Part shown: in pieces, positions 5,991 to 44,536 of the stretch
How positions within the stretch are numbered: the first letter of the stretch is position 1
How the letters are laid out: every line of letters starts with the position of its first letter
DNA from: a virus
DNA length: 45,959 nt
Virus record (IMG/VR): IMGVR_UViG_3300036893_000027
Reading direction: 5' to 3' (one strand)
Program-made: the position numbers and the translations under genes
The notes under the pieces: model-generated
Databases searched by the model: none
Told to the model about the DNA's origin: nothing
Seen by the model: the letters and a program-made list of their open reading frames with translations, nothing else

Positions 5991-6010
5991 ATTGGCATAA
6001 TGTGCCAATA
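5991..6010 (+). promoter_or_regulatory. second copy of promoter-like motif (TGGCATAAT)
   Basis: Near-identical 20-mer, 102 bp downstream of the first copy. Confidence 0.4.
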
Positions 6011-6110
6011 AACAGACTGTGTACAGGGTTATTACAAGCAGGTTGGTGTAAGGCATCACGGTACTGGAGAACACCAACTGAAAGCTTGTGATAGTACACA
6101 GTCTGTATTA

Positions 6111-6183
<73 letters not shown>

Positions 6184-6254
6184 CCAATTTCTGTAAGTTC
6201 TGTGTTGCTGTGGCACAGATGTAGTGTAGTGAATAACAGTGAAAGGAGGGCCAA

Positions 6255-6470
6255 GTGCGCTACATAAAAGTGCTGAAGACTCTTGCTATTGTTGTAGGCG
6301 GAAGTCTTTCAGCTCTGGGTGTTTACTTTCTCTATCGCTCTATGTTTGGCGGGACTCCAGCTATTGAAGCTGATAGTCGTGCTGTTCAGGGAGCGTGGCG
6401 TAGTGCTGTTTCCGGCATTGCGAATCTGTTCCGTCGTAGTAGAACAGATGAGACAGTAATAGCTGCGTAG
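6255..6470 (+). CDS. hypothetical membrane-associated protein (GTG start)
   Basis: RBS GAAAGGAGGG then GTG; hydrophobic N-terminus. Confidence 0.5.
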   Translation: MRYIKVLKTLAIVVGGSLSALGVYFLYRSMFGGTPAIEADSRAVQGAWRSAVSGIANLFRRSRTDETVIAA

Positions 6471-18052: not shown

Positions 18053-18417
18053 TAGATGAAGTGCTTCATCAGGAGGCACTTCAGCTGGCCAATTCAGAGG
18101 AGGGCATGAAGCAGTTAGTTCATGCCCTTCTTTTTAGCACATCTGGTTTGGAAGCTGATTTTATTAAGGCACTTAAAAAGTATGTCTACCTAAAACGTGT
18201 CTACCAAATTCAAAGGGCAAGGGAATCAGAAGGATACAACCCAAACAGGAAAAACCTGAACATAGACACAAGCAAGGAAGAAGTAGAAAATGCTCACGAG
18301 CGTATGCGGGAATACGAAATAGGACTGGGTTGTGAATATGGCTTTGACTATGTTGCTCACCTCAAGAAGAGTTGGGGAAAGATACTTTCATTACAAGCAG
18401 CAAAATTGGGACTGTAA
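18049..18417 (+). CDS. hypothetical protein
   Basis: ATGA coupling; its last 10 nt overlap the 5' end of tRNA-Lys. Confidence 0.55.
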   Translation: MIDEVLHQEALQLANSEEGMKQLVHALLFSTSGLEADFIKALKKYVYLKRVYQIQRARESEGYNPNRKNLNIDTSKEEVENAHERMREYEIGLGCEYGFDYVAHLKKSWGKILSLQAAKLGL

Positions 18418-18480
18418 CTCAGTTGGTAGAGTAGCTGACTCTTAATCAGCGAGTCGTGGGTTCGAATCCCACCAGTCCCA
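18408..18480 (+). tRNA. tRNA-Lys (anticodon CUU), CCA encoded
   Basis: Acceptor GGGACTG/CAGTCCC, anticodon arm GCTGA-CTCTTAA-TCAGC (CTT at 18441-18443), T-loop GGGTTCGAATCCCAC. Confidence 0.85.
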
Positions 18481-18538
18481 CCACTTTCTTGAGGCTGTAG
18501 CTCAGCAGTTTCTATGTTACAATGTCCACATTTCATAT

Positions 18539-18614
18539 GTCCTCGTATCGGAACGGACTTCTAATCCGTAGCCCCGTAAATGGATCAATGTGAGTTCGAG
18601 TCTCACCGAGGACA
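18539..18614 (+). ncRNA. atypical tRNA-Arg(UCU)-like element without a canonical D-arm
   Basis: Perfect 7-bp acceptor GTCCTCG/CGAGGAC plus ACCA, anticodon arm ACGGA-CTTCTAA-TCCGT (TCT), T-arm GTGAG-TTCGAGT-CTCAC; only 7 nt lie between acceptor and anticodon stem, with a 20-nt region where the variable loop should be; a 5' Ala-tRNA-like fragment (GAGGCTGTAGCTCAGC) sits immediately upstream. Confidence 0.4.
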
Positions 18615-21841: not shown

Positions 21842-21854
21842 TCAACCACTCTAC

Positions 21855-21897
21855 ACAAGGCGGGGTATTCTAGAGTATCTCGCCTTGTGTTTTTTCT
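21855..21897 (+). terminator. rho-independent terminator
   Basis: Stem ACAAGGCG..CGCCTTGT followed by TTTTTTCTT. Confidence 0.6.
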
Positions 21898-21957: not shown

Positions 21958-22245
21958 ATGGAGAAGATTCAAGCAGAAGTGCGTTTATATTATACAGGAA
22001 GAACAAGCTGGGAAACTGAGTATTTCACAGCTTCGTCTCTTATGGATGTTCAGATTCAAGCCACAAAAATTGCCAAGGAAAGACAAGCCAGTCATTTCAA
22101 CTTTGGGTTGGCAACACCTGAGGAAAATATCCAAGAAAATCGCAGACTAACTTCCAAAGTCTTTGGGGCAAATATCCCGGTGAAAGATCAAGTAAAAGCC
22201 ATAGAAGGAGCTCTAGGTCTAAGGACTGAAGATGACTCAGACTAA
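21958..22245 (+). CDS. hypothetical protein
   Basis: RBS TTAGGAGAAATA-ATG. Confidence 0.6.
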   Translation: MEKIQAEVRLYYTGRTSWETEYFTASSLMDVQIQATKIAKERQASHFNFGLATPEENIQENRRLTSKVFGANIPVKDQVKAIEGALGLRTEDDSD

Positions 22246-23212
22246 CCCAGAAAAGAAAGAAAGAGAAAGACACAAACCCAAGATTTATATGAACATAGGT
22301 CTTCCTGGTTCCGGTAAAACAACGGAATCCAGGAAGATGATGAATCACGACTCGAATATTATGAGAATTAACAGAGATGATATTCGTGCTATGTGTATGA
22401 ATCATTGGAAGGGAAAGAAGGAAGAATATGTCACTTTATTGGAACAGGAAGCTATTAAGCTTGCCGTTAAAGAACGATACAGTGTTATTATTGATGACAC
22501 CAACCTCAATCCTAACACGAGGAAAAAGTGGGAAAATCTGGCTCTGGAGCTAAAGGTACCTTTCGTTGAGAAAAGCTATCTGGAAGTATCCCTACAAGAT
22601 TGTATTGAAAGGGATGATAACAGAGATAAGAAAGTCGGCAGAGTTGTAATTGAAAATATGGCTCTGAGATACAATCTTATCCCTAAACCAGATAAGCCAA
22701 TTGTTATCTTTGACATCGACGGAACTTTGGCTGACCTTAGTCATAGACAGGGCTACCTAAAAGTATGCAAGGTATGTAAGAAGCTTGAAAAATACCATAT
22801 CGAGAAGATAGAAGGAGCTTGTGGAACTTACACACCGAGCAGGAAAGATCATATATCCTTCTATAATCTTGTCCACGAAGACAAGCCTATTTGGACTGTT
22901 ATAGATTGGATTAACGCTTGCTCGGAGGATTATTATCCAATCTGTGTCTCTGGTCGACCTATGAATCTAACAGGTGAGTCTACCCACTGGTGGCTTAGTA
23001 TGTATCACGTCAATTATCATCATCTTTTTATGCGGGAAAGTGGTGATTTTAGACAAGATACGATTGTTAAACAGGAGATTCTTGACAAGATTCTGAAGTG
23101 GGTACCCAAAGATCAAATTCTATTCACGGTTGATGATAGACCTTCTATCGTTGAAATGTGGAAGAAGAATGGAATCCGCTGCTATGATGTGGGAAAAGGA
23201 ATAGAATTCTAA
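22232..23212 (+). CDS. pnkp: polynucleotide 5'-kinase/3'-phosphatase (T4 Pnkp-like)
   Basis: N-terminal P-loop GLPGSGKTT kinase; C-terminal HAD phosphatase motif VIFDIDGTLAD (DxDGT) with downstream VDDRP. Confidence 0.85.
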   Translation: MTQTNPEKKERERHKPKIYMNIGLPGSGKTTESRKMMNHDSNIMRINRDDIRAMCMNHWKGKKEEYVTLLEQEAIKLAVKERYSVIIDDTNLNPNTRKKWENLALELKVPFVEKSYLEVSLQDCIERDDNRDKKVGRVVIENMALRYNLIPKPDKPIVIFDIDGTLADLSHRQGYLKVCKVCKKLEKYHIEKIEGACGTYTPSRKDHISFYNLVHEDKPIWTVIDWINACSEDYYPICVSGRPMNLTGESTHWWLSMYHVNYHHLFMRESGDFRQDTIVKQEILDKILKWVPKDQILFTVDDRPSIVEMWKKNGIRCYDVGKGIEF

Positions 23213-25020: not shown

Positions 25021-26229
25021 ATGTCAGATACGCATAAATGTGAAGTAGTTAGGGTGTTCCCTAAACAACATCCTAATCCGAAGTGCACAAAACTCGACTT
25101 AGTTGAAGTCTATGGGTATACCTGCTGTGTCCAAAAAGGTCAATTCGAACAAGGGCAGTTGGCTATCTACATTCCTCCTGACTCGGTCGTTCCTCAGAAA
25201 AAGCAATTTGAATGGCTCTGGGAAGATATTGAACTTCTCGAAGGCCAAGAAGTCCCCATCCGTCGCCGTAGGATCAAAGCGAAGAAACTCCAAGGTGTAG
25301 CCTCTGAAGGATTACTGATACCTATCAGTGATTTTGGCTATCACGAATATATAACTGATAGTCAATCTATGCCTACAATGAAGGAAGGACAGGATGTTGC
25401 TTCCATCATTGGAGTAACACACTATGAACCTCCTTGTGATGAAACAAGTGGTGATTCCGAGAAAGCCCCTTGTAAGATCAGGAAGAAACGCTATCCCAAG
25501 ACATTTATGGGTTGGGTTTGGTTTATTCTTGATAAGCTGGGACTGCTAAAAAAAAAAGATCAAACAGAAACCACGGCAGAAACAGCAAGCTTTGAAGTCC
25601 CAATCTATGATTTAGAACCTTGGCAGAAACACAGGTCAAGAATAGAAGAAGGGGAAGAAGTTCTAATCACTGAGAAAATCCACGGAGAGAATAGTAGATT
25701 TACCTGGATGAACGATAGGCTTTATTGCGGCAGCCACTATCAATGGAAGAAGAACATAGCAGGTTCAAGATGGTGGGAATGTGTTAAACAGAATCCCTGG
25801 ATTGAATCTTTCTGTAAACAAAATCCAGGTTTAGTTATGTATGGCGAACTTGTTCCTACACAGAAGAGATACAACTATGGACAGAAAGAGGGCAAGTTCA
25901 GACTGTTTGGTTTTGACGTTTATAAACCAGCAGAAAGAAGGTATCTAAGTTATGAAGAGCTTCAAGCGCTCCCATTCGAGTACATATATGGAGAAGCTGA
26001 GGATTCAATTCACGCCAACATTTTGCACCCGTTTCATTGGGTGCCAACAATTAAGAAAGGCCCATACACTCAAGAAGATATTAGGCAGCTTTCGGTTGGC
26101 CAGTCGTTGGTACCGGGGGCAACCAATATCCGAGAAGGAATTGTTATCAGAACAATCAAAGAAAGGAAAGATTATAAAGGGAGGATATGCTTCAAGTTAG
26201 TATCAACTGATTATCTGGAAAAGGATTAA
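25021..26229 (+). CDS. ATP-dependent RNA ligase, Rnl5-like (NgrRnl/DraRnl family)
   Basis: N-terminal domain EVVRV..GYTCCVQKGQFEQGQLAIYIPPDS matches the NgrRnl N-terminal OB-like domain (GWTCVIKKGEFKQGD..VYFEIDS); nucleotidyltransferase motif I TEKIHGENSRF, plus FRLFGFDVY and EGIVIRT..K motifs; no C-terminal OB domain. Confidence 0.8.
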   Translation: MSDTHKCEVVRVFPKQHPNPKCTKLDLVEVYGYTCCVQKGQFEQGQLAIYIPPDSVVPQKKQFEWLWEDIELLEGQEVPIRRRRIKAKKLQGVASEGLLIPISDFGYHEYITDSQSMPTMKEGQDVASIIGVTHYEPPCDETSGDSEKAPCKIRKKRYPKTFMGWVWFILDKLGLLKKKDQTETTAETASFEVPIYDLEPWQKHRSRIEEGEEVLITEKIHGENSRFTWMNDRLYCGSHYQWKKNIAGSRWWECVKQNPWIESFCKQNPGLVMYGELVPTQKRYNYGQKEGKFRLFGFDVYKPAERRYLSYEELQALPFEYIYGEAEDSIHANILHPFHWVPTIKKGPYTQEDIRQLSVGQSLVPGATNIREGIVIRTIKERKDYKGRICFKLVSTDYLEKD

Positions 26230-26231
26230 AG

Positions 26232-26435
26232 TTGCCCATCAAAAGATTTAATGTTAATATGGATCTTGGGAACATATGGGGAAGGCTCTCCGAAACTTGG
26301 GGAGCCTTTTTCTTGTTGTGCTCTCCCAGATATAGAAAGATGGTAAAGAGAATCGACTTTGTAAGCAGCTGGACTAAAAGGAGAAGAGTCTGGATGAGGC
26401 TTAGGAGGGACAATGATAAAAATACCACGCCCTAA
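26232..26435 (+). CDS. small basic protein (TTG start, weak)
   Basis: ORF in the gap between genes. Confidence 0.3.
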   Translation: MPIKRFNVNMDLGNIWGRLSETWGAFFLLCSPRYRKMVKRIDFVSSWTKRRRVWMRLRRDNDKNTTP

Positions 26436-26622
26436 AGTGCCAATAGCACAAAGGTATTATTATAACTTCTGGGCCAGATTATTGTATACTTGGAACTTGA
26501 GGATATTTTACCATCCTAATTCAAGAAATCACGTAGGTTGTCTAAGAATGAGACAGAATGAAATATATGGGACACCTAGAATACAGGAGAGAAAATGGCA
26601 CTACCCGGACACACATCAGTAG
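26413..26622 (+). CDS. small basic protein
   Basis: Strong RBS TTAGGAGGGACA-ATG. Confidence 0.5.
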   Translation: MIKIPRPKVPIAQRYYYNFWARLLYTWNLRIFYHPNSRNHVGCLRMRQNEIYGTPRIQERKWHYPDTHQ

Positions 26623-27581
26623 GAGTTATTATAGGTAGGTTTCAAATACCAGCTCTTCACGAAGGACATAAGAGACTGTTTGAAACTGTATTCAACAGAC
26701 ATAAGAGAGTAGTTGTTCTGTTGGGAATTCCAGCTTGGTTAGGTGGGACAATAAATCCACTTGACTATCAGACTCGAAAGGCTATGATATTAGAAGATTA
26801 TCCAAATGCTCAAGTTGAATATATCAAAGATTGCCAAACCAACGAAGCGTGGAGTAGGAACGTTGACAATAGACTTGGAGAACTCTACCCGTTCTCAGAG
26901 ATTATATTGTATGGAGGTAGAAAGGGTTTTACAGGGGCGTATTGTGGGAAGTTTCAAACTATTGAAACTCTGGAAGATCCGAAATATCATGAAGAAAACG
27001 CAAGCGAAATGCGTAAACAAGCTTCGGTCTTACCGCTCTCGTCAAAAGATTTTAGGACGGGTGTAATATATGGGGCATTTTCGGTTCCAGAAGGGCCCCA
27101 AATGTGTATTGATGGCGCTGTTCTACGAGAGCTTGACAGCAAGGAACTACAAAAAAAGGTTCAAGTTCTTCTCATCGCTAAAGCTAATGAGAAGATGTGG
27201 CGCTTCCCTGGCGGCAAGCTTGACAATGGGGATGTTGACTTGGAGGCAGCTATACTCAGGGAGGTACGTGAAGAGACAGGACTGGAAGTAAGCAACCCCA
27301 GATATATAGCCAGTGGCCCTGTAAAGGACTGGAGAGCGGACAGAGCAGGCATTCAGCTGTATAGTGCCTTATTTGTCCTTGATTACGTCTACGGGGCTGC
27401 TAAGGCCCAAGACGATGCTGCCTTATCTACCTGGCTGGATTTAGAAGGTCTAACAATAGAAAATATGGAGGAATGCCACCGTCCTTTCCTCTTGGCTTTG
27501 AAGAATTGGTATAATACTTACAAAACAAAGGAGATAGAATGCGAGACAACTTCCTGCTCCAAACAGATAGTTATAAGCTAA
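26595..27581 (+). CDS. bifunctional NMN adenylyltransferase / Nudix hydrolase (NadM-Nudix type)
   Basis: N-terminus GVIIGRFQIPALHEGHKRL (NadM GRFQPxHxGH); C-terminal Nudix box GGKLDNGDVDLEAAILREVREETGLEV. Confidence 0.8.
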   Translation: MALPGHTSVGVIIGRFQIPALHEGHKRLFETVFNRHKRVVVLLGIPAWLGGTINPLDYQTRKAMILEDYPNAQVEYIKDCQTNEAWSRNVDNRLGELYPFSEIILYGGRKGFTGAYCGKFQTIETLEDPKYHEENASEMRKQASVLPLSSKDFRTGVIYGAFSVPEGPQMCIDGAVLRELDSKELQKKVQVLLIAKANEKMWRFPGGKLDNGDVDLEAAILREVREETGLEVSNPRYIASGPVKDWRADRAGIQLYSALFVLDYVYGAAKAQDDAALSTWLDLEGLTIENMEECHRPFLLALKNWYNTYKTKEIECETTSCSKQIVIS

Positions 27582-28957
27582 CTCACTGGAAGCAGTATCC
27601 TAAAGACGCAGAGGTAGTTTATAGTTACCTTATGCCTCGTGGAGCTGTTCAAGGAGAAGCTATTCATCACGTTAATATAGTCAATTCAAGTATGTTGACT
27701 TATTACTTGAGGACTTATTTACAGGGCCAGCTTTTTGATATGGATGATATCATTGAAGCTGAGCAGTTCTGTGATGACCATTTTGGTAAAAAGGGCTACT
27801 TTAACCGAGCTGGATGGGAACACATTCTTAAGGAACATAATGGAAGGATTCCAGTTAAGATAAAAGCTCTTCCTGAAGGAATGATAGTTCCTATTGGTAA
27901 TCCTCTGATGACGGTTGAAAACACAGATGAAAGAGTCCCGTGGATAACAAACTACATAGAATCTTTGCTACTGAAAGTGTGGTATCCTGTTTCCGTCGCT
28001 ACGTTAGCAATGAATATAAGGAAAGTTATATCAGGTTATTTGGAAAAGACAGGGGATGTAGCCCAATTGCCATTCAAGTTGCACGACTTTGGATACCGTG
28101 GCGTATCCTCAGAGGAATCAGCAAAGCTGGGCGGAGCGGCCCACTTGACGGTCTTCCAAGGAAGCGACAATCTTACTGGTATTAGAATGCTAAAGAAGAT
28201 GTATAGAGAAGCAGGTATGCCTGGTTTCTCTGTTCCAGCTTCGGAACATTCTACTATGACCAGCTGGGGAAAAGACCACGAGATTGACGCTTACATCAAT
28301 ATGATGGAAGCTTACCCCACAGGTATCATTTCTATTGTTAGTGATAGCTATGATATCTTCAACGCTTGTGATAAGATTTTTGGAGTTGAGCTGAAAGATA
28401 GAATTCTAAAGAGGGATGGAGTTGTAGTAATTCGTCCTGATTCAGGAGACCCAGCTGAGACAATAGCTTCGGTTCTTACCATTCTTGAGAAGCATTTTGG
28501 AACTACAAAGAATGAAAAGGGCTACAAGGAGCTTCCAGCTCAAGTCAGACTACTTCAAGGAGATGGAGTAAACCTTGCAAGTATTGAACGCATTCTTAGT
28601 ATGATGAGGTGGCGTTCTTTCTCTGCCAATAACATTGTTTTTGGTATGGGTGGGGCTCTTCTCCAGAAGATGGACAGAGATACACTTGGATTTGCTTTCA
28701 AGTGCTCTGCTATCAAGCGAGCTGGAGTTTGGCACGATGTCTTTAAAACAGCCAGTGGAAAGAAGTCTCTTAGGGGACGCTTGGCCGTCATAAAAAATGC
28801 CAAGGGAGAAATTGAAACTATCTCTGGTGATCCTGACTTGGTTCTTGGAGAAGATCTACTTGGAATCAAGTTTATGAACGGAGGTTTGTATGAATTCCCA
28901 ACCCTACAAGGGATAAGAGAGTATACAAAGATCCAGGAACCTGTTCTAATAGGATAG
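27539..28957 (+). CDS. nadV: nicotinamide phosphoribosyltransferase
   Basis: Starts MRDNFLLQTDSYKLTHWKQYP (NAMPT hallmark DSYKxTHxxQYP); length 472 aa. Confidence 0.9.
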   Translation: MRDNFLLQTDSYKLTHWKQYPKDAEVVYSYLMPRGAVQGEAIHHVNIVNSSMLTYYLRTYLQGQLFDMDDIIEAEQFCDDHFGKKGYFNRAGWEHILKEHNGRIPVKIKALPEGMIVPIGNPLMTVENTDERVPWITNYIESLLLKVWYPVSVATLAMNIRKVISGYLEKTGDVAQLPFKLHDFGYRGVSSEESAKLGGAAHLTVFQGSDNLTGIRMLKKMYREAGMPGFSVPASEHSTMTSWGKDHEIDAYINMMEAYPTGIISIVSDSYDIFNACDKIFGVELKDRILKRDGVVVIRPDSGDPAETIASVLTILEKHFGTTKNEKGYKELPAQVRLLQGDGVNLASIERILSMMRWRSFSANNIVFGMGGALLQKMDRDTLGFAFKCSAIKRAGVWHDVFKTASGKKSLRGRLAVIKNAKGEIETISGDPDLVLGEDLLGIKFMNGGLYEFPTLQGIREYTKIQEPVLIG

Positions 28958-28965
28958 GAGAGTAG

Positions 28966-30138
28966 ATGAAACTTTACAATATGTTAGATGTAAATCTACT
29001 CCACAAGTATTGGGTAGAGAGAATTGTATCAAAACAGACTCACCCAGAGCACAAAAACTTAGAGATCTATAACTACACTCATCGTGCTCAACACGAGAAC
29101 ATATGGGACAATATAACGGAACAATGTAGAGGATTAATAGTAGATTCCAATACGGGCGATGTATTAGCTCGTCCTTTTCGTAAGTTCTTTAATCTCAACA
29201 CTTCTTTCAAACCTGAGACTATGGAAGAGAACTTACCATATAAAAAGCCAGATTGTATACTTGAGAAGATGGATGGTTCTCTTGGCATTTTATATCCTTA
29301 TAACAATAAGCAATATATTGCAACACGAGGTTCATTTTCTTCTGATCAAGCAAGATGGGCAAATACTTGGTGGGATAGATTAGCATTTTATAACACTGGA
29401 TACCCTGAGTTTCCAAAAGGTTACACTCCATTATTCGAAATCATTTACAAGGAGAATAGAATTGTCGTTGACTACCAGTTCGAAGGTTTGGTCTTACTTG
29501 GACTTGTCCAGATTGAGACTGGTTTTGAGCTACCGTTTACGGAGGTTTGCGAGGTGGCCAGGAGGAACGGACTACAATCACCTAAATCTATTGAAGGGAG
29601 CTTGGAGGAGATCACATCCCGCCAGGAAAGTAATACAGAAGGGTTTGTATTACAGTTTTGGTGCCGCAAAGCCCCCGTCCCTCTACGGCTTAAAGTAAAA
29701 ACCGAGGAGTATAAAAGGCTACATAAAATAATAACTGGCACAAACCCTAAGGGTATATGGGAACACCTGAAAGAAGGTGGGGATCCAGATGCTCTTTGGG
29801 CTAACACTAATAACCAGTTCTTTCACTGGTGCCAGGGTTGGATCAATACTTTTCAAAGGATGTATAAGGAACTTGAAGATGAAACACTCAAAGCATTCGG
29901 TAGAGTTTGTGCCAATGTATCGGAAACACTTTACAGCACACACGGGACACTGGACGCACCGGCTATCAGGGGGGCCCACGCAGTTCTTATTCAACAGGAG
30001 CAAGTTCACTATCAGCCGATACTCTTCGCTATGTTATCAGGTAAGGGATACAAAAAACAAATATGGAAGTCCTTAGAACCTAAAATCCAAGGAAAGGATG
30101 TTTTCCTAAGAAATGGCGACGAATTTAACGGTATTTAA
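28966..30138 (+). CDS. rnlA: RNA ligase 1 (T4 RnlA-like tRNA repair ligase)
   Basis: CRGLIVD..RPFRKFFNLN..ILEKMDGSLGI collinear with T4 Rnl1 CRGIMFE..RPMEKFFNLN..ILTKEDGSLVS (motif I KxDGSL). Confidence 0.85.
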   Translation: MKLYNMLDVNLLHKYWVERIVSKQTHPEHKNLEIYNYTHRAQHENIWDNITEQCRGLIVDSNTGDVLARPFRKFFNLNTSFKPETMEENLPYKKPDCILEKMDGSLGILYPYNNKQYIATRGSFSSDQARWANTWWDRLAFYNTGYPEFPKGYTPLFEIIYKENRIVVDYQFEGLVLLGLVQIETGFELPFTEVCEVARRNGLQSPKSIEGSLEEITSRQESNTEGFVLQFWCRKAPVPLRLKVKTEEYKRLHKIITGTNPKGIWEHLKEGGDPDALWANTNNQFFHWCQGWINTFQRMYKELEDETLKAFGRVCANVSETLYSTHGTLDAPAIRGAHAVLIQQEQVHYQPILFAMLSGKGYKKQIWKSLEPKIQGKDVFLRNGDEFNGI

Positions 30139-30290: not shown

Positions 30291-30671
30291 ATGAAAGCCA
30301 CGGTAATTGAATATGAAAAACTCTATTACGAGGAGGATTGCCCAGTAGGTATTACTGGACTCTCTACATTTCATGCAACACACCCGATATTTGGACAAGC
30401 CAATCCACCTGTGTACCTCAAAGGAGATATCAGCGAACTTAAAATCGTCAAAGAAACCTTTTGTTGTCCTGATATGGAGAATGCGTACAGGATGGGTACC
30501 GTGGGCTTCGGAGAAAGAAAGAACGAAACTTACAGGAACAAAGTGGCTGAGGTTTTCATTCATATCGAGGGAGGTTCAAAAAACGATATAGCTATTCCTT
30601 TCTGTCTGTGGTGTAAAGCCCCTGTCTTTACACAAGAAAATATGAACTATGTCGAGTATTCAAGACGATAA
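30291..30671 (+). CDS. hypothetical Cys-rich protein
   Basis: RBS AAAAAGGAGATATA-ATG. Confidence 0.6.
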   Translation: MKATVIEYEKLYYEEDCPVGITGLSTFHATHPIFGQANPPVYLKGDISELKIVKETFCCPDMENAYRMGTVGFGERKNETYRNKVAEVFIHIEGGSKNDIAIPFCLWCKAPVFTQENMNYVEYSRR

Positions 30672-31272
30672 GAAATTAGGAAACTGGATAAGAAGATGGA
30701 ATTATATAAGCGAACCTAATATGGAACATTCAACTCATCCAAAGGTAATAAAGACTCCATCTGTGGTATTACTTAATCCTAAGTATCCTCAGAATGTAGC
30801 TTCAGCTATTAGAGCTTGTAGTTGTTTTGGAGTTAGCACTCTTATATGGACTGGGGAGAGGGTTAACTTTTCTAAGCTGGACAGAATTCCCAGGGAAGAG
30901 AGAATGAAAGGATATAGAGATGTATACTGGGAGATCAACGAACGGCCACTTGATCTTTTTCCTGGCTCGATCCCGATTTGCGTCGAGATTACTCCTAACG
31001 CACAAAATCTGGCAACTTTTACTCACCCACCCAACGTGGTGTACATCTTTGGCCCAGAGGACGGCAGCGTTAACCAAGTCTATAGAAGACTATGCCACTC
31101 GTTCGTCTTTATACCTGCGGCACATTGTCTTAACCTCGCTGCGGCGTTAAATGTTGTTCTTTATGACCGCCGAATAAAGAGACAAGCATTGGGTTTAGAA
31201 CCTACGGCTATGAAAGACATTCTTAAAGAAACCAGAGGGCCAATAGACATTCCTGGTTGGAATGGTAGTTAA
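30649..31272 (+). CDS. SPOUT (SpoU/TrmH/TrmL-type) RNA 2'-O-methyltransferase
   Basis: VVLLNPKYPQNVASAIRACSCFGV, YIFGPEDGSV, FIPAAHCLNLAAALNVVLYDR are the three SPOUT motifs; start could alternatively be ATG 30721. Confidence 0.75.
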   Translation: MSSIQDDKKLGNWIRRWNYISEPNMEHSTHPKVIKTPSVVLLNPKYPQNVASAIRACSCFGVSTLIWTGERVNFSKLDRIPREERMKGYRDVYWEINERPLDLFPGSIPICVEITPNAQNLATFTHPPNVVYIFGPEDGSVNQVYRRLCHSFVFIPAAHCLNLAAALNVVLYDRRIKRQALGLEPTAMKDILKETRGPIDIPGWNGS

Positions 31273-31456
31273 TGATAAAAAATAAACGTAGATGGCTAAT
31301 GAGGTTATCATCTACCTTATGTATTTTCCAATGGTATAGAAACTCAAAAATACTATCAGGAGAAAAGCGTACTAAGATATCTGATTGGCTACGTAGGTAT
31401 TACATATGAGACAAGTTAACTACTATTGGTCCAACAAAATATTCAGGGGACATATA

Positions 31457-31579
31457 ATGTTAATGTGGAGAGCTGTATTTAGAAGACAATCAGGAGGTAA
31501 AATACCATCCAAGTACCTCTACCACAAAATATTTGATACTAAGTGTAAAACATACAAAGAAATTTGGAGGAAAGATTAA
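31457..31579 (+). CDS. small basic protein (40 aa)
   Basis: RBS CAGGGGACATATA-ATG; stop abuts the next ATG. Confidence 0.35.
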   Translation: MLMWRAVFRRQSGGKIPSKYLYHKIFDTKCKTYKEIWRKD

Positions 31580-31897
31580 ATGGCCAGAATTAGTGCTACA
31601 AACAATGTAGTTATAACCTGTTACGGGTTTATGACTGCTATATGTGCTGGTATCTTCTTTTGGAAGATTAGTGCTTTCTTTTTTGTGGGTTTTATGTTAG
31701 CATTTATACTTAAACTGGTTAACAGCATAGAAGTCCCAGTCCATAGTCACGGGTTGGAACCAGCTACTAAAAGGAGTAATAATGTCCCAGGAAAATCCAT
31801 TAGCACCAGCTCCAATCCAAGTATTCCGAGACCTACTGAAAGACTTCCCATTGGAAATCCTAATAAAGGTCAAGGAACGAATGCTAATAGTTCATAG
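31580..31897 (+). CDS. membrane protein with Ser/Pro-rich tail
   Basis: RBS GGAGGAAAGATTAA-ATG; two hydrophobic helices. Confidence 0.5.
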   Translation: MARISATNNVVITCYGFMTAICAGIFFWKISAFFFVGFMLAFILKLVNSIEVPVHSHGLEPATKRSNNVPGKSISTSSNPSIPRPTERLPIGNPNKGQGTNANSS

Positions 31898-31979
31898 TGA
31901 ACAACTTGATACAGTTGACGATTTAATCAGCCAGAAGATATTGGAGAAAACCAATGCTGGAGAGAATAAATCAATTTAA
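31782..31979 (+). CDS. hypothetical protein
   Basis: Textbook RBS AAAAGGAGTAATA-ATG; out-of-frame overlap with the previous gene. Confidence 0.5.
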   Translation: MSQENPLAPAPIQVFRDLLKDFPLEILIKVKERMLIVHSEQLDTVDDLISQKILEKTNAGENKSI

Positions 31980-32418
31980 TGATAAGTATGCTTTCTTATC
32001 CAATTTTTATGCATCAGAGGTTCTATATGAAGATCTTGTATATCCAACGGTAGAACACGCTTATCAAGCTGCCAAGACTACTGACATCGAAATAAGAGAG
32101 AATTTTGCTTGGAGGATCCTTACCGCAAAAGAGGCAAAACAAGAAGGTAGAAAGCTTATTATCAGAAAAGATTGGGAATCCATCAAGCTTAAAGTGATGG
32201 AAGAACTGCTAAGAAAGAAGTTCTTAGATCATATGAACTTAAGATTTCTCTTGAAAACAGAAACTGCCTGGTTAGAAGAAGGTAACTACTGGCACGATAA
32301 CTTCTGGGGTAATTGTAGTTGTGTAAAGTGCTCAAACATAGAAGGAAAGAATAACCTTGGTATGCTACTAATGAATATTAGATTTGAATTAAGAAAGTTT
32401 AGGATGATATTTGAATGA
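31954..32418 (+). CDS. NADAR (YbiA/DUF1768) domain protein
   Basis: DKYAFLSNFYASEV..YPTVEHAYQAAK is the NADAR signature (FLSNF..YPTxEHxYQA). Confidence 0.75.
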   Translation: MLERINQFNDKYAFLSNFYASEVLYEDLVYPTVEHAYQAAKTTDIEIRENFAWRILTAKEAKQEGRKLIIRKDWESIKLKVMEELLRKKFLDHMNLRFLLKTETAWLEEGNYWHDNFWGNCSCVKCSNIEGKNNLGMLLMNIRFELRKFRMIFE

Positions 32419-32574
32419 TGAATGCATCAGCTTTTTGGCACAAGCTTGGCACAACATTTAATTTCTTCAGTAGGTATAGACTAAATAGATGGTATTCAGA
32501 AAGTGCAGGTGAGTTGGGAAAAAAATGGGAGCCTAAGATCAGAAAGTTTGGGAAGGCGAAGCGAGGAAAATAAA

Positions 32575-33183
32575 ATGGATTGGTTTACAGCCGACTGGCA
32601 TCTAAATCATAAAAATATCATAAGGTTCTGCAATAGACCTTATACAGACATTGAACAGCATAACGAAGCTTTAATAGCTAATGTAAATGCTGTAGTTAAA
32701 CCTGATGATCGTCTTTTTAATCTTGGGGATGTTACCTTTGGTGGCAACCTTGCTCTTATTAGAGCAAGTATAGTATGTAAGAATGTGTTTGTTATTCTTG
32801 GGAATCACGACAAAGAATCTCAACTAAGAACTCATTTCACCATCTTACCACAATGTTATGAGTATAAGAACAATGGACTTAACTTAGTTCTTTGTCATTA
32901 TGCTATGCGGGTTTGGAACAAATCCCATCACGGAGTTGGACATTTGTATGGACACTCTCATAACACTATGCCATCACTACCTGGGGTGGCTTCTTTTGAT
33001 TGTGGGGTCGACGGGAATAATTATAGACCTTGGTCTGAGGAAGAAGTAAAAACCGAGCTTAAAAGATTAGTCGCTTTAGCACCAGAAGTAAACGGAGAAC
33101 ACCTACATCATGAGTTTAGACATACAGGACGGGAAGAGAATCAAAATACTGGTTCGAAAGAACCTGAAAATGTCGCCAGGTAA
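32575..33183 (+). CDS. calcineurin-like metallophosphoesterase
   Basis: ADWHLNH, LGDVTFGG, ILGNHDKE, LCHYAM, YGHSH give the full MPE motif set; ATG 32575 with RBS GCGAGGAAAATAAA. Confidence 0.75.
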   Translation: MDWFTADWHLNHKNIIRFCNRPYTDIEQHNEALIANVNAVVKPDDRLFNLGDVTFGGNLALIRASIVCKNVFVILGNHDKESQLRTHFTILPQCYEYKNNGLNLVLCHYAMRVWNKSHHGVGHLYGHSHNTMPSLPGVASFDCGVDGNNYRPWSEEEVKTELKRLVALAPEVNGEHLHHEFRHTGREENQNTGSKEPENVAR

Positions 33184-33454
33184 GATAGCAGCCCAAGCAG
33201 TTCACGCTGCCTTAGGACTAAACGAAGCATTGGAGCAAGACTTAGAAGAATGCGATTATCCAGATAGAATAGCTCTTAGTGCCAAACTTTCGGTCGTAGT
33301 CTTAGAGGTAAGTGATGCTAAGTATAAGGCAGCAATACAGCAAGGTGTGGAGAGTGGGCGTACACAATATGCTGTTTTCGACGCTGGGCGCACTGAAGTG
33401 GCGGCGGGTACAGAAACAGTATGTGCTTTCCTTGAAGAACAACCCAAAGTATAA
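33110..33454 (+). CDS. peptidyl-tRNA hydrolase, Pth2 family
   Basis: KILVRKNLKMSPGKIAAQAVHAALG .. AVFDAGRTEV..GTETVCAF matches Pth2 ([25 protein letters not shown]..). Confidence 0.75.
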   Translation: MSLDIQDGKRIKILVRKNLKMSPGKIAAQAVHAALGLNEALEQDLEECDYPDRIALSAKLSVVVLEVSDAKYKAAIQQGVESGRTQYAVFDAGRTEVAAGTETVCAFLEEQPKV

Positions 33455-33582: not shown

Positions 33583-33665
33583 GGCGGGGTGGTGGAATTG
33601 GCAGACACATCAGACTCAAAATCTGACGGTTAACAGCCATGAGAGTTCGAATCTCTCCTTCGCTA
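33583..33665 (+). tRNA. tRNA-Leu (anticodon CAA), class II with long variable arm; CCA encoded
   Basis: Acceptor GGCGGGG/CTTCGCT (4 WC + 3 G-U), anticodon arm TCAGA-CTCAAAA-TCTGA (CAA at 33617-33619), 14-nt variable arm, T-arm GAGAG-TTCGAAT-CTCTC. Confidence 0.8.
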
Positions 33666-33682
33666 CCAATTTTAGGAGGTTT

Positions 33683-43828: not shown

Positions 43829-44536
43829 ATGGCCAAGCTACTTAAATGGAACTTATCAAAACTTCAAACACCTTCCAGACCTCTTACAGGGCCGCTTCCT
43901 GACACTTATATTAGGGAACTAACCCGACTATGTGAAGAATTACAAGGGGTTTATCTATCAGGGATTCAGGTTGGAGATGCTCGTTGTTTTGCTATCCCCA
44001 ATCCTAATATGAAGAAGTTTCCTATTATTTACAACCCTGTTATATTGGAACAATATGACGAAATCAAATCTGAAAAAGAAGGTTGCTTGTCATTTCCTGG
44101 TTTGTGGATCTCGATCCCACGCTATAAGTATATTGAAATCTCGTATAAAGATGGCAACTGGAAAGAGTGTAGGGCAACTTTTGGAGCTGAAGATGCTTCG
44201 ACTGAAGAAGCTTTACTTGCCAAAGCTATTCAACACGAGATTTTTCATATGCAAGGCCACGTTATTCACGAAAGAATGAAAAATGCCAAATCAAAAATCA
44301 AAGTTACAGCCGAAATACTCAAAAGATCGTTGGAGCAAAACAAAAGAAATGGTGTACCAAGTATCGTGGAAGGGCCATTGGAGCTGGACCCGAGTACTTT
44401 GCCAGCTATCATCCTCTCTGAGAATAAGGAAGATAATGGACGACTATTATGCGAAGAAAACAGGGGTTTAGATACGGTGACAATGGAACATATAGATGGT
44501 GGTATGCAGACAGAATCAAAAACTCAGGAGCTTTAA
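43829..44536 (+). CDS. def: peptide deformylase
   Basis: Motif 2 EGCLSFPG and motif 3 QHEIFHMQGH (HExxH), with an upstream GIQVGD motif-1-like Gln. Confidence 0.8.
   Translation: MAKLLKWNLSKLQTPSRPLTGPLPDTYIRELTRLCEELQGVYLSGIQVGDARCFAIPNPNMKKFPIIYNPVILEQYDEIKSEKEGCLSFPGLWISIPRYKYIEISYKDGNWKECRATFGAEDASTEEALLAKAIQHEIFHMQGHVIHERMKNAKSKIKVTAEILKRSLEQNKRNGVPSIVEGPLELDPSTLPAIILSENKEDNGRLLCEENRGLDTVTMEHIDGGMQTESKTQEL

Follow-up and report, generated by a model that had tools for sequence, protein, structure and literature searches.

What could bring an RNA methyltransferase, a putative ADP-ribose hydrolase, a phosphoesterase and a peptidyl-tRNA hydrolase together in a phage genome, and do they act as one unit? 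The question is raised by IMG/VR virus record IMGVR_UViG_3300036893_000027, a phage-like contig of 45,959 nucleotides (hereafter the window, meaning this whole stretch of DNA), which encodes the following four enzymes:

30649-31272, + strand: SpoU/TrmH-class SPOUT RNA 2'-O-methyltransferase, called SpoU below (PF00588, 54.6 bits against a cutoff of 29.7, residues 39-172).
31954-32418, + strand: NADAR (YbiA-fold) ADP-ribosyl/N-glycoside hydrolase, Glu-type, without an N-terminal extension (PF08719, 77.8 bits against 35.1).
32575-33183, + strand: calcineurin-like metallophosphoesterase (MPE) of the aq_1665/phrog_547 family (phrog_547 'phosphoesterase', 5e-43).
33110-33454, + strand: small Pth2-type peptidyl-tRNA hydrolase (PF01981, 54.6 bits against 23).

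An earlier annotation, made from the letters alone and called here the sequence-only reading, had grouped these genes into one module directly downstream of nicotinamide adenine dinucleotide (NAD) genes and had proposed that they form a second anti-defence or damage-reversal layer. The enzyme families and active sites in that proposal hold up and its interpretation of NADAR is supported, whereas the module idea and the tie between the MPE and ADP-ribose are not supported. We lean, with modest confidence, towards the view that the four enzymes form the downstream end of a mosaic counter-defence island that would repair the damage inflicted by host immunity on tRNA, translation and bases. The best reading of how they relate to one another is that they are independent, mix-and-match tools that have been reshuffled together in large phages, with no obligate single pathway. 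tRNA repair and translation rescue provide the more coherent frame for such a set, and reversal of ADP-ribosylation would be one arm of it.

The context that supports this reading lies upstream and downstream of the four genes on the same strand:

22232-23212, + strand: T4-type Pnkp, a polynucleotide kinase with a HAD 3'-phosphatase (HAD_PNKP 6.4e-27, AAA_33 1.1e-16, phrog_505 2.9e-65).
25021-26229, + strand: second RNA ligase, with a PHA02142 OB domain and PF09414 (TIGR02306 3.3e-37).
26595-28957, + strand: NMNAT-Nudix and NAMPT, an NAD+ salvage pair of the NARP2 type as defined in PMC13464706 (Pfam NUDIX, NAPRTase and NAMPT_N; NCBIfam bifunctional NMNAT/Nudix).
28966-30138, + strand: T4 Rnl1-type RNA ligase (PF09511 8.5e-20, phrog_562 9.8e-67).
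33583-33668, + strand: tRNA-Leu(CAA), 129 nucleotides (nt) after Pth2 (ARAGORN, and Rfam at 52.3 bits).

The four enzymes are the tail of this RNA-repair and NAD+ island, which extends over about 22.2-33.7 kb, and not a self-contained block. Rnl1 and an open reading frame (ORF) at 30291-30671 intervene between the NAD genes and SpoU, so 'directly downstream' was inexact, and no link had been made to the upstream RNA-repair genes, namely Pnkp and two RNA ligases including the adjacent Rnl1. All island genes lie on the + strand of this one-stranded window, and alignments indicate intact active sites in all four enzymes. Scans for promoters and terminators gave counts no higher than those in shuffled sequence, and we claim no operon structure. 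Two terminator-like hairpins with 16-17-bp stems and T runs, at 21853-21890 and 26278-26312, flank the block from Pnkp to the ligase and could be the limits of transcription units.

The source is an uncultured phage of roughly 100 kb. Two sequencing runs contain the window sequence, one in a 99,921-bp assembly and the other in a 4.5-kb contig; over 3,620 nt the samples agree at 99.945% identity, and their gene arrangement is the same. A megablast search of 26-36 kb against 50,697 deposited phage records found no nucleotide-level relative. Families were called with Pfam gathering cutoffs, PHROGs and NCBIfam equivalog cutoffs, and tRNAs with ARAGORN and Rfam. PADLOC returned a weak match for NADAR only (PDC-M42C, 8e-8) and nothing for the other genes. 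Single-protein scans of IMG/VR recovered nothing for SpoU and one distant locus for Pth2, and alignment-based scans were needed.

Do the four genes travel together in other phages? We assembled 83 SpoU loci (80 IMG/VR contigs and three relatives), which form 70 clusters at 90% SpoU identity, and searched 10 kb on each side of SpoU with iterated profiles. The numbers of clusters with each gene in this range are as follows:

217-amino-acid (aa) PF09414 RNA ligase: 10 of 70.
NADAR: 8 of 70.
MPE of the window type: 7 of 70.
Rnl1: 6 of 70.
Histidine phosphatase (PF00300, His_Phos_1): 5 of 70.
Polynucleotide kinase (PNK): 3 of 70.
Pth2: 1 of 70.

The counts for MPE, NADAR and Pth2 contradict a fixed four-gene module, and the nearest relatives keep Rnl1...SpoU-NADAR with the MPE 6 kb downstream and no Pth2. 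The commonest same-strand neighbours of SpoU are the 217-aa ligase, NADAR, MPE and the His_Phos_1 phosphatase. No more than 1 kb separates SpoU from 14 of these 30 neighbours, where about 10% would be expected if they were distributed evenly over the 10 kb on each side (P = 3e-7). Furthermore, the position next to SpoU is occupied in different lineages by two non-homologous phosphatases, the MPE and the histidine phosphatase. tRNA genes are found within 8 kb in 42 of 82 SpoU loci, several of them inside arrays of 20-32 tRNAs. Some SpoU-bearing viral loci also contain tmRNA genes (L012, L038, L062, L069 and L073), and suppressor-type tRNAs (anticodons cta, tca and tta) occur in L020, L027, L047, L057, L061 and L073; some of these large phages may thus recode stop codons.

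Systems that cleave tRNA or attach ADP-ribose (PrrC, RloC, PARIS, retrons, DarTG and others) make up a major branch of bacterial immunity. Phages are known to respond by replacing tRNAs, by healing and sealing ends in the T4 manner, and with NADAR or mimics of antitoxins. Homology and gene context, from which every step is drawn, suggest how the island might answer such attacks. When host anticodon nucleases or ribotoxins cleave tRNA, the products would carry 2',3'-cyclic-phosphate and 5'-OH ends. The MPE and the HAD domain of Pnkp would remove the cyclic or 3' phosphate, Pnkp would phosphorylate the 5' end, and Rnl1 or the second ligase would seal the break. SpoU would 2'-O-methylate the tRNA, either at the healed 3' nucleotide before sealing, in the manner of Hen1, or pre-emptively in the anticodon loop; metal-independent nucleases need that 2'-OH, and the methylated tRNA would no longer be cut or re-cut. 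Pth2 might free stalled, cleaved or toxin-acetylated tRNAs of peptidyl or N-acyl-aminoacyl groups and so make these tRNAs available for recycling. NADAR would hydrolyse ADP-ribose from guanine in phage DNA after DarT1-type attack, and possibly from RNA, while the NAMPT/NMNAT pair would rebuild NAD+.

Several points weigh against this scheme. Any RNA-repair or NADAR gene is present within 10 kb in only 26 of the 70 SpoU loci and a ligase in only 11, and these co-occurrence frequencies stand without a matched background set. Unrelated ORFs separate the island genes, which are dispersed across 11 kb. A HAD phosphatase is already present in Pnkp, so the MPE is not obviously needed for end healing, and phages phiAGATE, CP21 and phi4:1 carry the same MPE family among DNA-replication and nucleotide genes. 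SpoU itself may be an ordinary tRNA or rRNA maturation enzyme borrowed by phages, because its Pseudomonas orthologues (described below) sit in a conserved neighbourhood of housekeeping appearance. More generally, every substrate assignment made here is a prediction from homology or neighbourhood.

Some of these points favour a simpler explanation that we consider unlikely, namely that unrelated accessory genes have piled up without cooperation in a hyperplastic early/accessory region. SpoU would then mature phage tRNAs or host rRNA, the MPE would serve nucleotide or DNA metabolism, Pth2 would give general translation support as peptide deformylase does, and NADAR would be a stand-alone anti-DarT enzyme. 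This would fit the wide variation in gene content and order even among close relatives, the 44 of 70 SpoU loci that have no repair gene within 10 kb, the replication or nucleotide contexts of the MPE in three phage lineages, the housekeeping-type bacterial orthologues of SpoU, and the presence in the window of a peptide deformylase gene and scattered tRNAs. However, independent accumulation does not readily account for the tight clustering around SpoU, for the two non-homologous phosphatases at the same position beside it, or for the PNK-MPE and MPE-Pth2 pairs that recur in separate lineages.

Three of the four enzymes are of known kinds, and the RNA methyltransferase (the SpoU clade) is the new element, previously undescribed in phage RNA repair. 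Its identification as a SPOUT RNA 2'-O-methyltransferase at 30649-31272 is borne out by a PF00588 score above the gathering cutoff and by three intact SpoU motifs. Across 26 sequences, the residues of motif 1 (N49/R55), motif 2 (FGPEDG with E137) and motif 3 (HCLNL with N162) are invariant or nearly so, and we take them to correspond to the catalytic Arg, Glu and Asn established for T. thermophilus TrmH. The alignment also contains an invariant basic loop, R-[LI]-P-R-E-E-R-M-K-G-Y, and a C-terminal GW[DN]G tail, both specific to this clade. M25 (30721) is the probable true start: it is where homologues begin, and an AlphaFold2 model with a predicted local distance difference test (pLDDT) score of 83 shows disorder over residues 1-30. 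Foldseek matched this model with probability 1.00 to TrmH (1zjr), AviRb, TrmJ and TrmL, and the best folds (TrmH, AviRb, TARBP1, TrmJ and TrmL) are all ribose 2'-O-methyltransferases with at most 24% identity to it. These matches support the SPOUT alpha/beta fold at the level of overall fold comparison, and the predicted activity is S-adenosylmethionine-dependent RNA ribose methylation.

Which RNA might be the substrate? The best structural and profile matches of SpoU are tRNA Gm18, Nm32 and Nm34 enzymes (TrmH, TrmJ and TrmL), which have in common with it the fold and the three SpoU motifs, including the motif 1 catalytic Arg. They differ in overall sequence (identity of at most 24%) and lack the basic loop and GW[DN]G tail, which are confined to the window SpoU clade. 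Furthermore, SpoU falls far below every NCBIfam equivalog cutoff, including TIGR00050 (30.9 against 167) and the TrmL model TIGR00185 (18.7 against 190.6). The JGI product name TrmL, together with a tRNA-Leu(CAA) gene that starts 7 nt after SpoU in locus L021, had prompted the idea that SpoU is a TrmL acting on the neighbouring tRNA-Leu(CAA); we reject it on the strength of the TrmL equivalog score and because tRNA-Leu(caa/taa) genes are equally common near SpoU (14 of 82 loci) and near Pth2 (12 of 80).

The SpoU family is highly conserved yet almost absent from cultured phages. Only one of the 50,697 deposited phage records carries the clade, and it is that of an uncultured 595-kb phage. There are at least 235 matches in IMG/VR and more than 580 across bacterial and archaeal species genomes; among the matches listed, metagenomic relatives are 50-68% identical to the window SpoU. 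The best matches are on Acidobacteriota contigs of metagenome-assembled genomes, and those contigs may be phage-derived. About 50 Pseudomonas species (L205-L256, with the match at about 6001-6405) have a chromosomal orthologue that is 40-43% identical and without the C-terminal tail. Its neighbours are conserved (YcgN-like, YajD-like HNH, nitroreductase, 2-hydroxyacid dehydrogenase and RNase D), and it looks like a housekeeping methyltransferase.

What the MPE acts on is suggested chiefly by its company. It scores under the cutoffs of both Pfam models (Metallophos, 22.4 against 27; Metallophos_2, 19.4 against 21.5), and therefore its membership rests on the phrog_547 match and on a profile match to 1XM7. 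All five metal motifs that had been read from the sequence (D7-x-H9, G51-D52, G76-N77-H78(-D79), H108 and G126-H127-x-H129) were confirmed as invariant in an alignment of 10 family members from very different phages. The structure 1XM7 (Aquifex aeolicus aq_1665) was matched at 2.6e-9 with the single sequence and at 2.6e-26 with the family profile, and is the sole strong PDB match. The profile match is full-length and includes the same five motifs, but aq_1665 is itself uncharacterised and thus provides a fold and an active site for the window MPE, not a substrate. CthPnkp and lambda phosphatase were not returned by single-sequence or profile searches of the PDB. The most likely start is ATG 32575 (MDWFTADWH), which has GAGGAAAA 6-13 nt upstream, and GTG 32503 was rejected in its favour.

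In the Vequintavirus HeinrichReichert, the MPE gene directly follows a 136-aa kinase-only PNK and lies beside an RNA ligase gene. The T5-like Vibrio phage Quinn and the Pseudomonas phage PsIn (Pakpunavirus) have the MPE within about 2 kb of Rnl1 and of an orthologous small PNK, with phosphoribosyl pyrophosphate synthase and NAMPT in the same 8-10 kb stretch, and these small PNKs are 42-45% identical to one another. IMG/VR loci contain further PNK-MPE pairs as well as an Rnl1-MPE-PNK triad. Given such neighbours, we propose a putative role for the MPE as an RNA 3'-end-healing phosphoesterase. A kinase-only PNK of 136-148 aa recurs beside phrog_547 MPE and Rnl1 at L090 (4583-5555), L091 (4287-5519), L092 (3992-6832) and L107 (12807-15293), spanning Vequintavirus, Thalassavirus, Pakpunavirus and an IMG/VR phage. 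The combination looks like a 'split Pnkp' in which a metallophosphoesterase replaces the HAD domain.

A very different pair of roles is also conceivable, in which the MPE would break down the cyclic nucleotides or oligonucleotides that act as immune signals (CBASS, Pycsar or type III CRISPR), and SpoU would methylate rRNA to protect it from a toxin aimed at ribosomes, much as AviRb, Tsr and NHR protect against antibiotics. The MPE family profile weakly matches Rv0805 and GpdQ (cyclic-nucleotide and glycerophospho-diesterases; E 3e-4 to 6e-3), phage calcineurin-like phosphodiesterases have been proposed to counter nucleotide signals (PMC7824862), and the top structural matches of SpoU include AviRb and the methyltransferases that confer resistance to thiostrepton (Tsr) and nosiheptide. 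However, those PDB matches of the MPE are marginal and its sole strong one is to the uncharacterised aq_1665; no PADLOC or anti-defence family match was obtained. SpoU is without an N-terminal rRNA-binding domain of the AviRb/Tsr type, its residues 1-30 being disordered and its matches covering the catalytic domain only, and the tRNA-gene context favours a tRNA substrate. We consider this explanation very improbable.

The NADAR is the component whose function can be proposed most directly. Its best solved relative is E. coli YbiA (2B3W, 4.9e-17), and the catalytic and ADP-ribose-contact set E34, K41, W74, E109, D115 and W118 is invariant in an alignment with NADAR-Bas32 and two relatives. These residues correspond to E43, K50, W89, E125, D130 and W133, which contact ADP-ribose in the P. 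nicotianae NADAR structure (PMC11543638). The earlier assignment thus stands, and its author had named missing catalytic residues as a finding that would overturn it; all six are present. The protein is 44% identical to bas32_0066 (NADAR-Bas32) of phage IrisVonRoten over 149 aligned columns (query residues 4-148, pairwise E 2e-34). NADAR-Bas32 restores growth of DarTG1-sensitive phages and neutralises DarT1 by experiment (PMC11257639). A putative guanine de-ADP-ribosylating activity of the anti-DarT1 class is the best-supported part of the sequence-only reading, and NADARs also remove ADP-ribose from RNA guanosine (PMC11833690).

Within this superfamily, the residue of the last strand is Asp in DarT1-linked antitoxins and His in T4 gp30.3/AdfN (PMC11125620). 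The window NADAR scores 72.6 against the YbiA subfamily model TIGR02464, just under the cutoff of 73.7, and has the Glu of the YbiA type in the last strand (LEE, E109), which separates it from both of those groups. With this Glu, a length of 154 aa without an extension and no ADP-ribosyltransferase gene nearby, it is of neither the DarG1/BC4488 nor the T4 AdfN type. In common with the phage anti-DarT1 NADARs (AdfN of T4, NADAR-Bas32 and NADAR-Bas60; PMC11257639), it is a stand-alone protein with no N-terminal extension and with the catalytic E/K/E/D/W set, but it differs from them in carrying a CxCxxC insertion. It also differs in its neighbours, which are RNA-repair genes, whereas those of bas32_0066 are nucleotide-metabolism genes; earlier work links NADAR to RNA-repair regions (PMC9503650).

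If NADAR is intact and close to a validated anti-DarT1 enzyme, it is reasonable to ask if the whole set is centred on ADP-ribose. Such a single damage-reversal layer would be coupled to the NAD genes, with NADAR de-ADP-ribosylating guanine, the MPE handling ADP-ribose, ADPr-cyclic phosphate or 2',3'-cyclic nucleotide monophosphate by-products, and SpoU and Pth2 dealing with downstream effects on translation. The NAMPT/NMNAT-Nudix genes are 3 kb upstream, NADAR or NAMPT/NMNAT genes adjoin Pth2 in three other loci (L117, L150 and L159), NAMPT lies near the MPE in Quinn and PsIn, and surveys propose that phage NADAR, Macro, Nudix and phosphoesterase proteins process soluble ADP-ribose derivatives (PMC9503650). 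Against this, the closest recurrent partners of the MPE are polynucleotide kinase and Rnl1, not NADAR, which leaves the proposed tie between the MPE and ADP-ribose processing unsupported, and the four genes are not found together as a set. The window ORFs that were scanned include no KptA/Tpt1, Macro or 2H enzyme to make or process ADPr-cyclic phosphate, and on this basis an NAD-dependent repair route through such partners was rejected. We judge an ADP-ribose-centred layer to be improbable, and return to a repair island in which NADAR would be one arm.

Pth2 would supply the translation-rescue side of that island. Matches to PDB Pth2 structures (human Bit1, 1Q7S, at 1.4e-6, and archaeal Pth2 structures) begin at residue 12. 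In 29 sequences, K25, Q29, H32, D91, G93, T95 and E96 are invariant (the GK...Q..HA and DAGxTE motifs), and these residues are presumably catalytic, as in the established work on archaeal Pth2. The assignment as Pth2 is upheld by the PF01981 score and by these conserved active-site motifs, and scores below the canonical archaeal/eukaryotic equivalog cutoffs (TIGR00283, 48.1 against 82; NF003314, 46.3 against 126) accompany it. By its sequence, the window Pth2 is placed in a shortened, phage-borne clade whose members are mostly about 80-130 aa long.

The 74-nt overlap between the MPE and Pth2 genes, noticed earlier, is real at the ORF level, because homologues share the Pth2 N-terminus and only ATG 33110 can start it. 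Nearly all of 28 homologous small Pth2 proteins begin with M-[KR]-R-I-K-[IL]-L-x-R-K-N-L-K-M, and ATG 33110 is the sole start codon upstream of this conserved N-terminal strand, with the MPE stop at 33183. The start of the gene caller at 33170 (a 14-nt overlap) would remove that strand and was rejected. The overlapped part of the MPE is a non-conserved 22-codon tail, and the closest MPE homologue has no tail and ends ...EHLHHDK where Pth2 begins. Among viral Pth2 loci, the MPE lies within 8 kb in 11 of 82, mostly as Pth2...PNK-MPE, and the MPE-then-Pth2 order is seen again in L153 with an 8-nt overlap. Other arrangements include Pth2-NMNAT-NAMPT (L117) and NADAR-Pth2 (L150). The median distance from a viral Pth2 to the nearest tRNA gene is 290 nt, and in phage KLEP7 the gene is near those for CCA-adding enzymes. 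A ribosome-rescue role has been proposed for phage Pth2 (PMC7824862), and Pth enzymes are reported to detoxify the tRNA-acetylating toxin TacT (PMC9241777).

How does the island compare with systems that are already described? Pth2, calcineurin-like phosphatases, Thg1, PNK, Rnl1/2 and tRNAs were predicted earlier to serve phage RNA repair and ribosome rescue (PMC7824862). The parts list of T4 Pnkp and Rnl1 and of the jumbo-phage sets in that study (Iyer et al. 2021) is the same: PNK with a HAD phosphatase, Rnl1- and Rnl2-type ligases, calcineurin-like phosphatase, Pth2, tRNAs, NADAR and NAD+ salvage nearby. Thg1 of those sets is present in sister contig L006. In contrast, the window island adds a SPOUT 2'-O-methyltransferase and a conserved four-cysteine protein, its phage is about 100 kb and not a jumbo phage, and it is known here from sequence. 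In the relevant text of the RNA-repair and NAD-network catalogues (PMC7824862 and PMC9503650), the terms 'SPOUT', 'SpoU' and 'TrmH' do not appear.

The bacterial Pnkp-Hen1 and Pnkp1-Rnl-Hen1 systems (PMC4411300, PMC3675462) provide the second comparison. They comprise the same four activities, namely a 5' kinase, a metallophosphoesterase-type 2',3' phosphatase, an RNA ligase and an RNA 2'-O-methyltransferase, and in other phages the SpoU gene abuts those for a phosphatase and a small ligase. Methylation by Hen1 makes the repaired tRNA resistant to re-cleavage, for example by colicin D (PMC4411300). The window differs in that its methyltransferase is a SPOUT (trefoil-knot) enzyme and not a Rossmann-fold Hen1, and in that the activities reside on separate proteins encoded over 11 kb, with no fused Pnkp or defined complex. 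It has the kinase, phosphatases and ligases of a Pnkp-Hen1 system but neither a Hen1-family methyltransferase nor a single operon or complex, and a functional analogy is possible. A bolder proposal, which we offer as tentative and rather unlikely, is that the SpoU clade is the SPOUT-based phage counterpart of Hen1, working with an adjacent phosphatase (MPE or histidine phosphatase) and an RNA ligase. Methylation of the cleavage-site 2'-O, after the cut or pre-emptively, would leave tRNA immune to re-cleavage, Pth2 would clear any acyl or peptidyl adduct first, and the four-cysteine protein could be a tRNA-binding accessory.

If the SpoU clade does protect or 'immunise' tRNA by ribose methylation, this would constitute a new viral counter-defence principle and would give a function to a conserved methyltransferase family; 'repair and immunise' counter-defence has not yet been described in any virus. 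For phrog_547, a very common phage phosphoesterase, a role is suggested as the 3'-healing partner of kinase-only PNKs. The putative NADAR activity would extend the validated anti-DarT1 enzymes to an environmental phage lineage. Should none of these readings prove right, the locus would still be a clear instance of an accessory island of a known kind.

The small ORFs in and around the block remain to be placed, and the following have features of their own:

30291-30671, + strand: 126-aa conserved protein with a putative four-cysteine zinc site (CC...CPxC).
31580-31897, + strand: 105-aa ORF, possibly a small membrane protein in view of its two hydrophobic segments; a gene call was made for it in both samples.
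31782-31979, + strand: 65-aa ORF of uncertain coding status that overlaps ORF 31580-31897 and NADAR, with AAGGAG, a strong ribosome-binding site, 7 nt upstream.
32415-32573, + strand: 52-aa basic ORF that shares an ATGA overlap with the NADAR stop and fills the NADAR-to-MPE gap, called as a gene in both samples.

The four-cysteine protein has no structural match in the PDB. ORF 31580-31897 is preceded by GGAGGAAAG, a strong ribosome-binding site; jackhmmer and tblastn gave no matches, and no homologues were found outside this phage. The 65-aa ORF weakly matches (31% over 36 aa, E 0.001) a sequence at the same position upstream of NADAR in L010/L013. No homologues were found for ORF 32415-32573, which had been absent from the earlier list of small genes, and ORF 31457-31579 has neither a homologue nor a gene call. 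For the suggestion that the small genes could be inhibitors, there is no evidence either way. The roughly 300 nt that separate SpoU from the next supported gene (31272-31579) have no called gene, only unsupported short ORFs, including 31457-31579, and no Rfam match; they may be regulatory.

Several other features of the window deserve mention. Rfam identifies a fifth tRNA at 18539-18614 (42.6 bits), uncalled by ARAGORN, right after tRNA-Lys(CTT) at 18408-18483. The peptide deformylase gene at 43829-44536 (PF01327, 8.7e-22), which is also present in sister contig L006, is a further translation-support gene. Just downstream of the island are genes for a 606-aa protein with a C-terminal OmpA peptidoglycan-binding domain (35949-37769) and for a 269-aa ABC-type ATPase (39006-39815). 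In an 807-aa protein encoded at 40269-42692, a Major Vault Protein shoulder domain (3.9e-30) occurs together with a Vault_3 repeat, and SPFH/Band_7 is matched weakly. The related phage contigs L006, L007 and L060 encode homologues of this vault/SPFH-like protein, and such conservation in a phage lineage is unusual.

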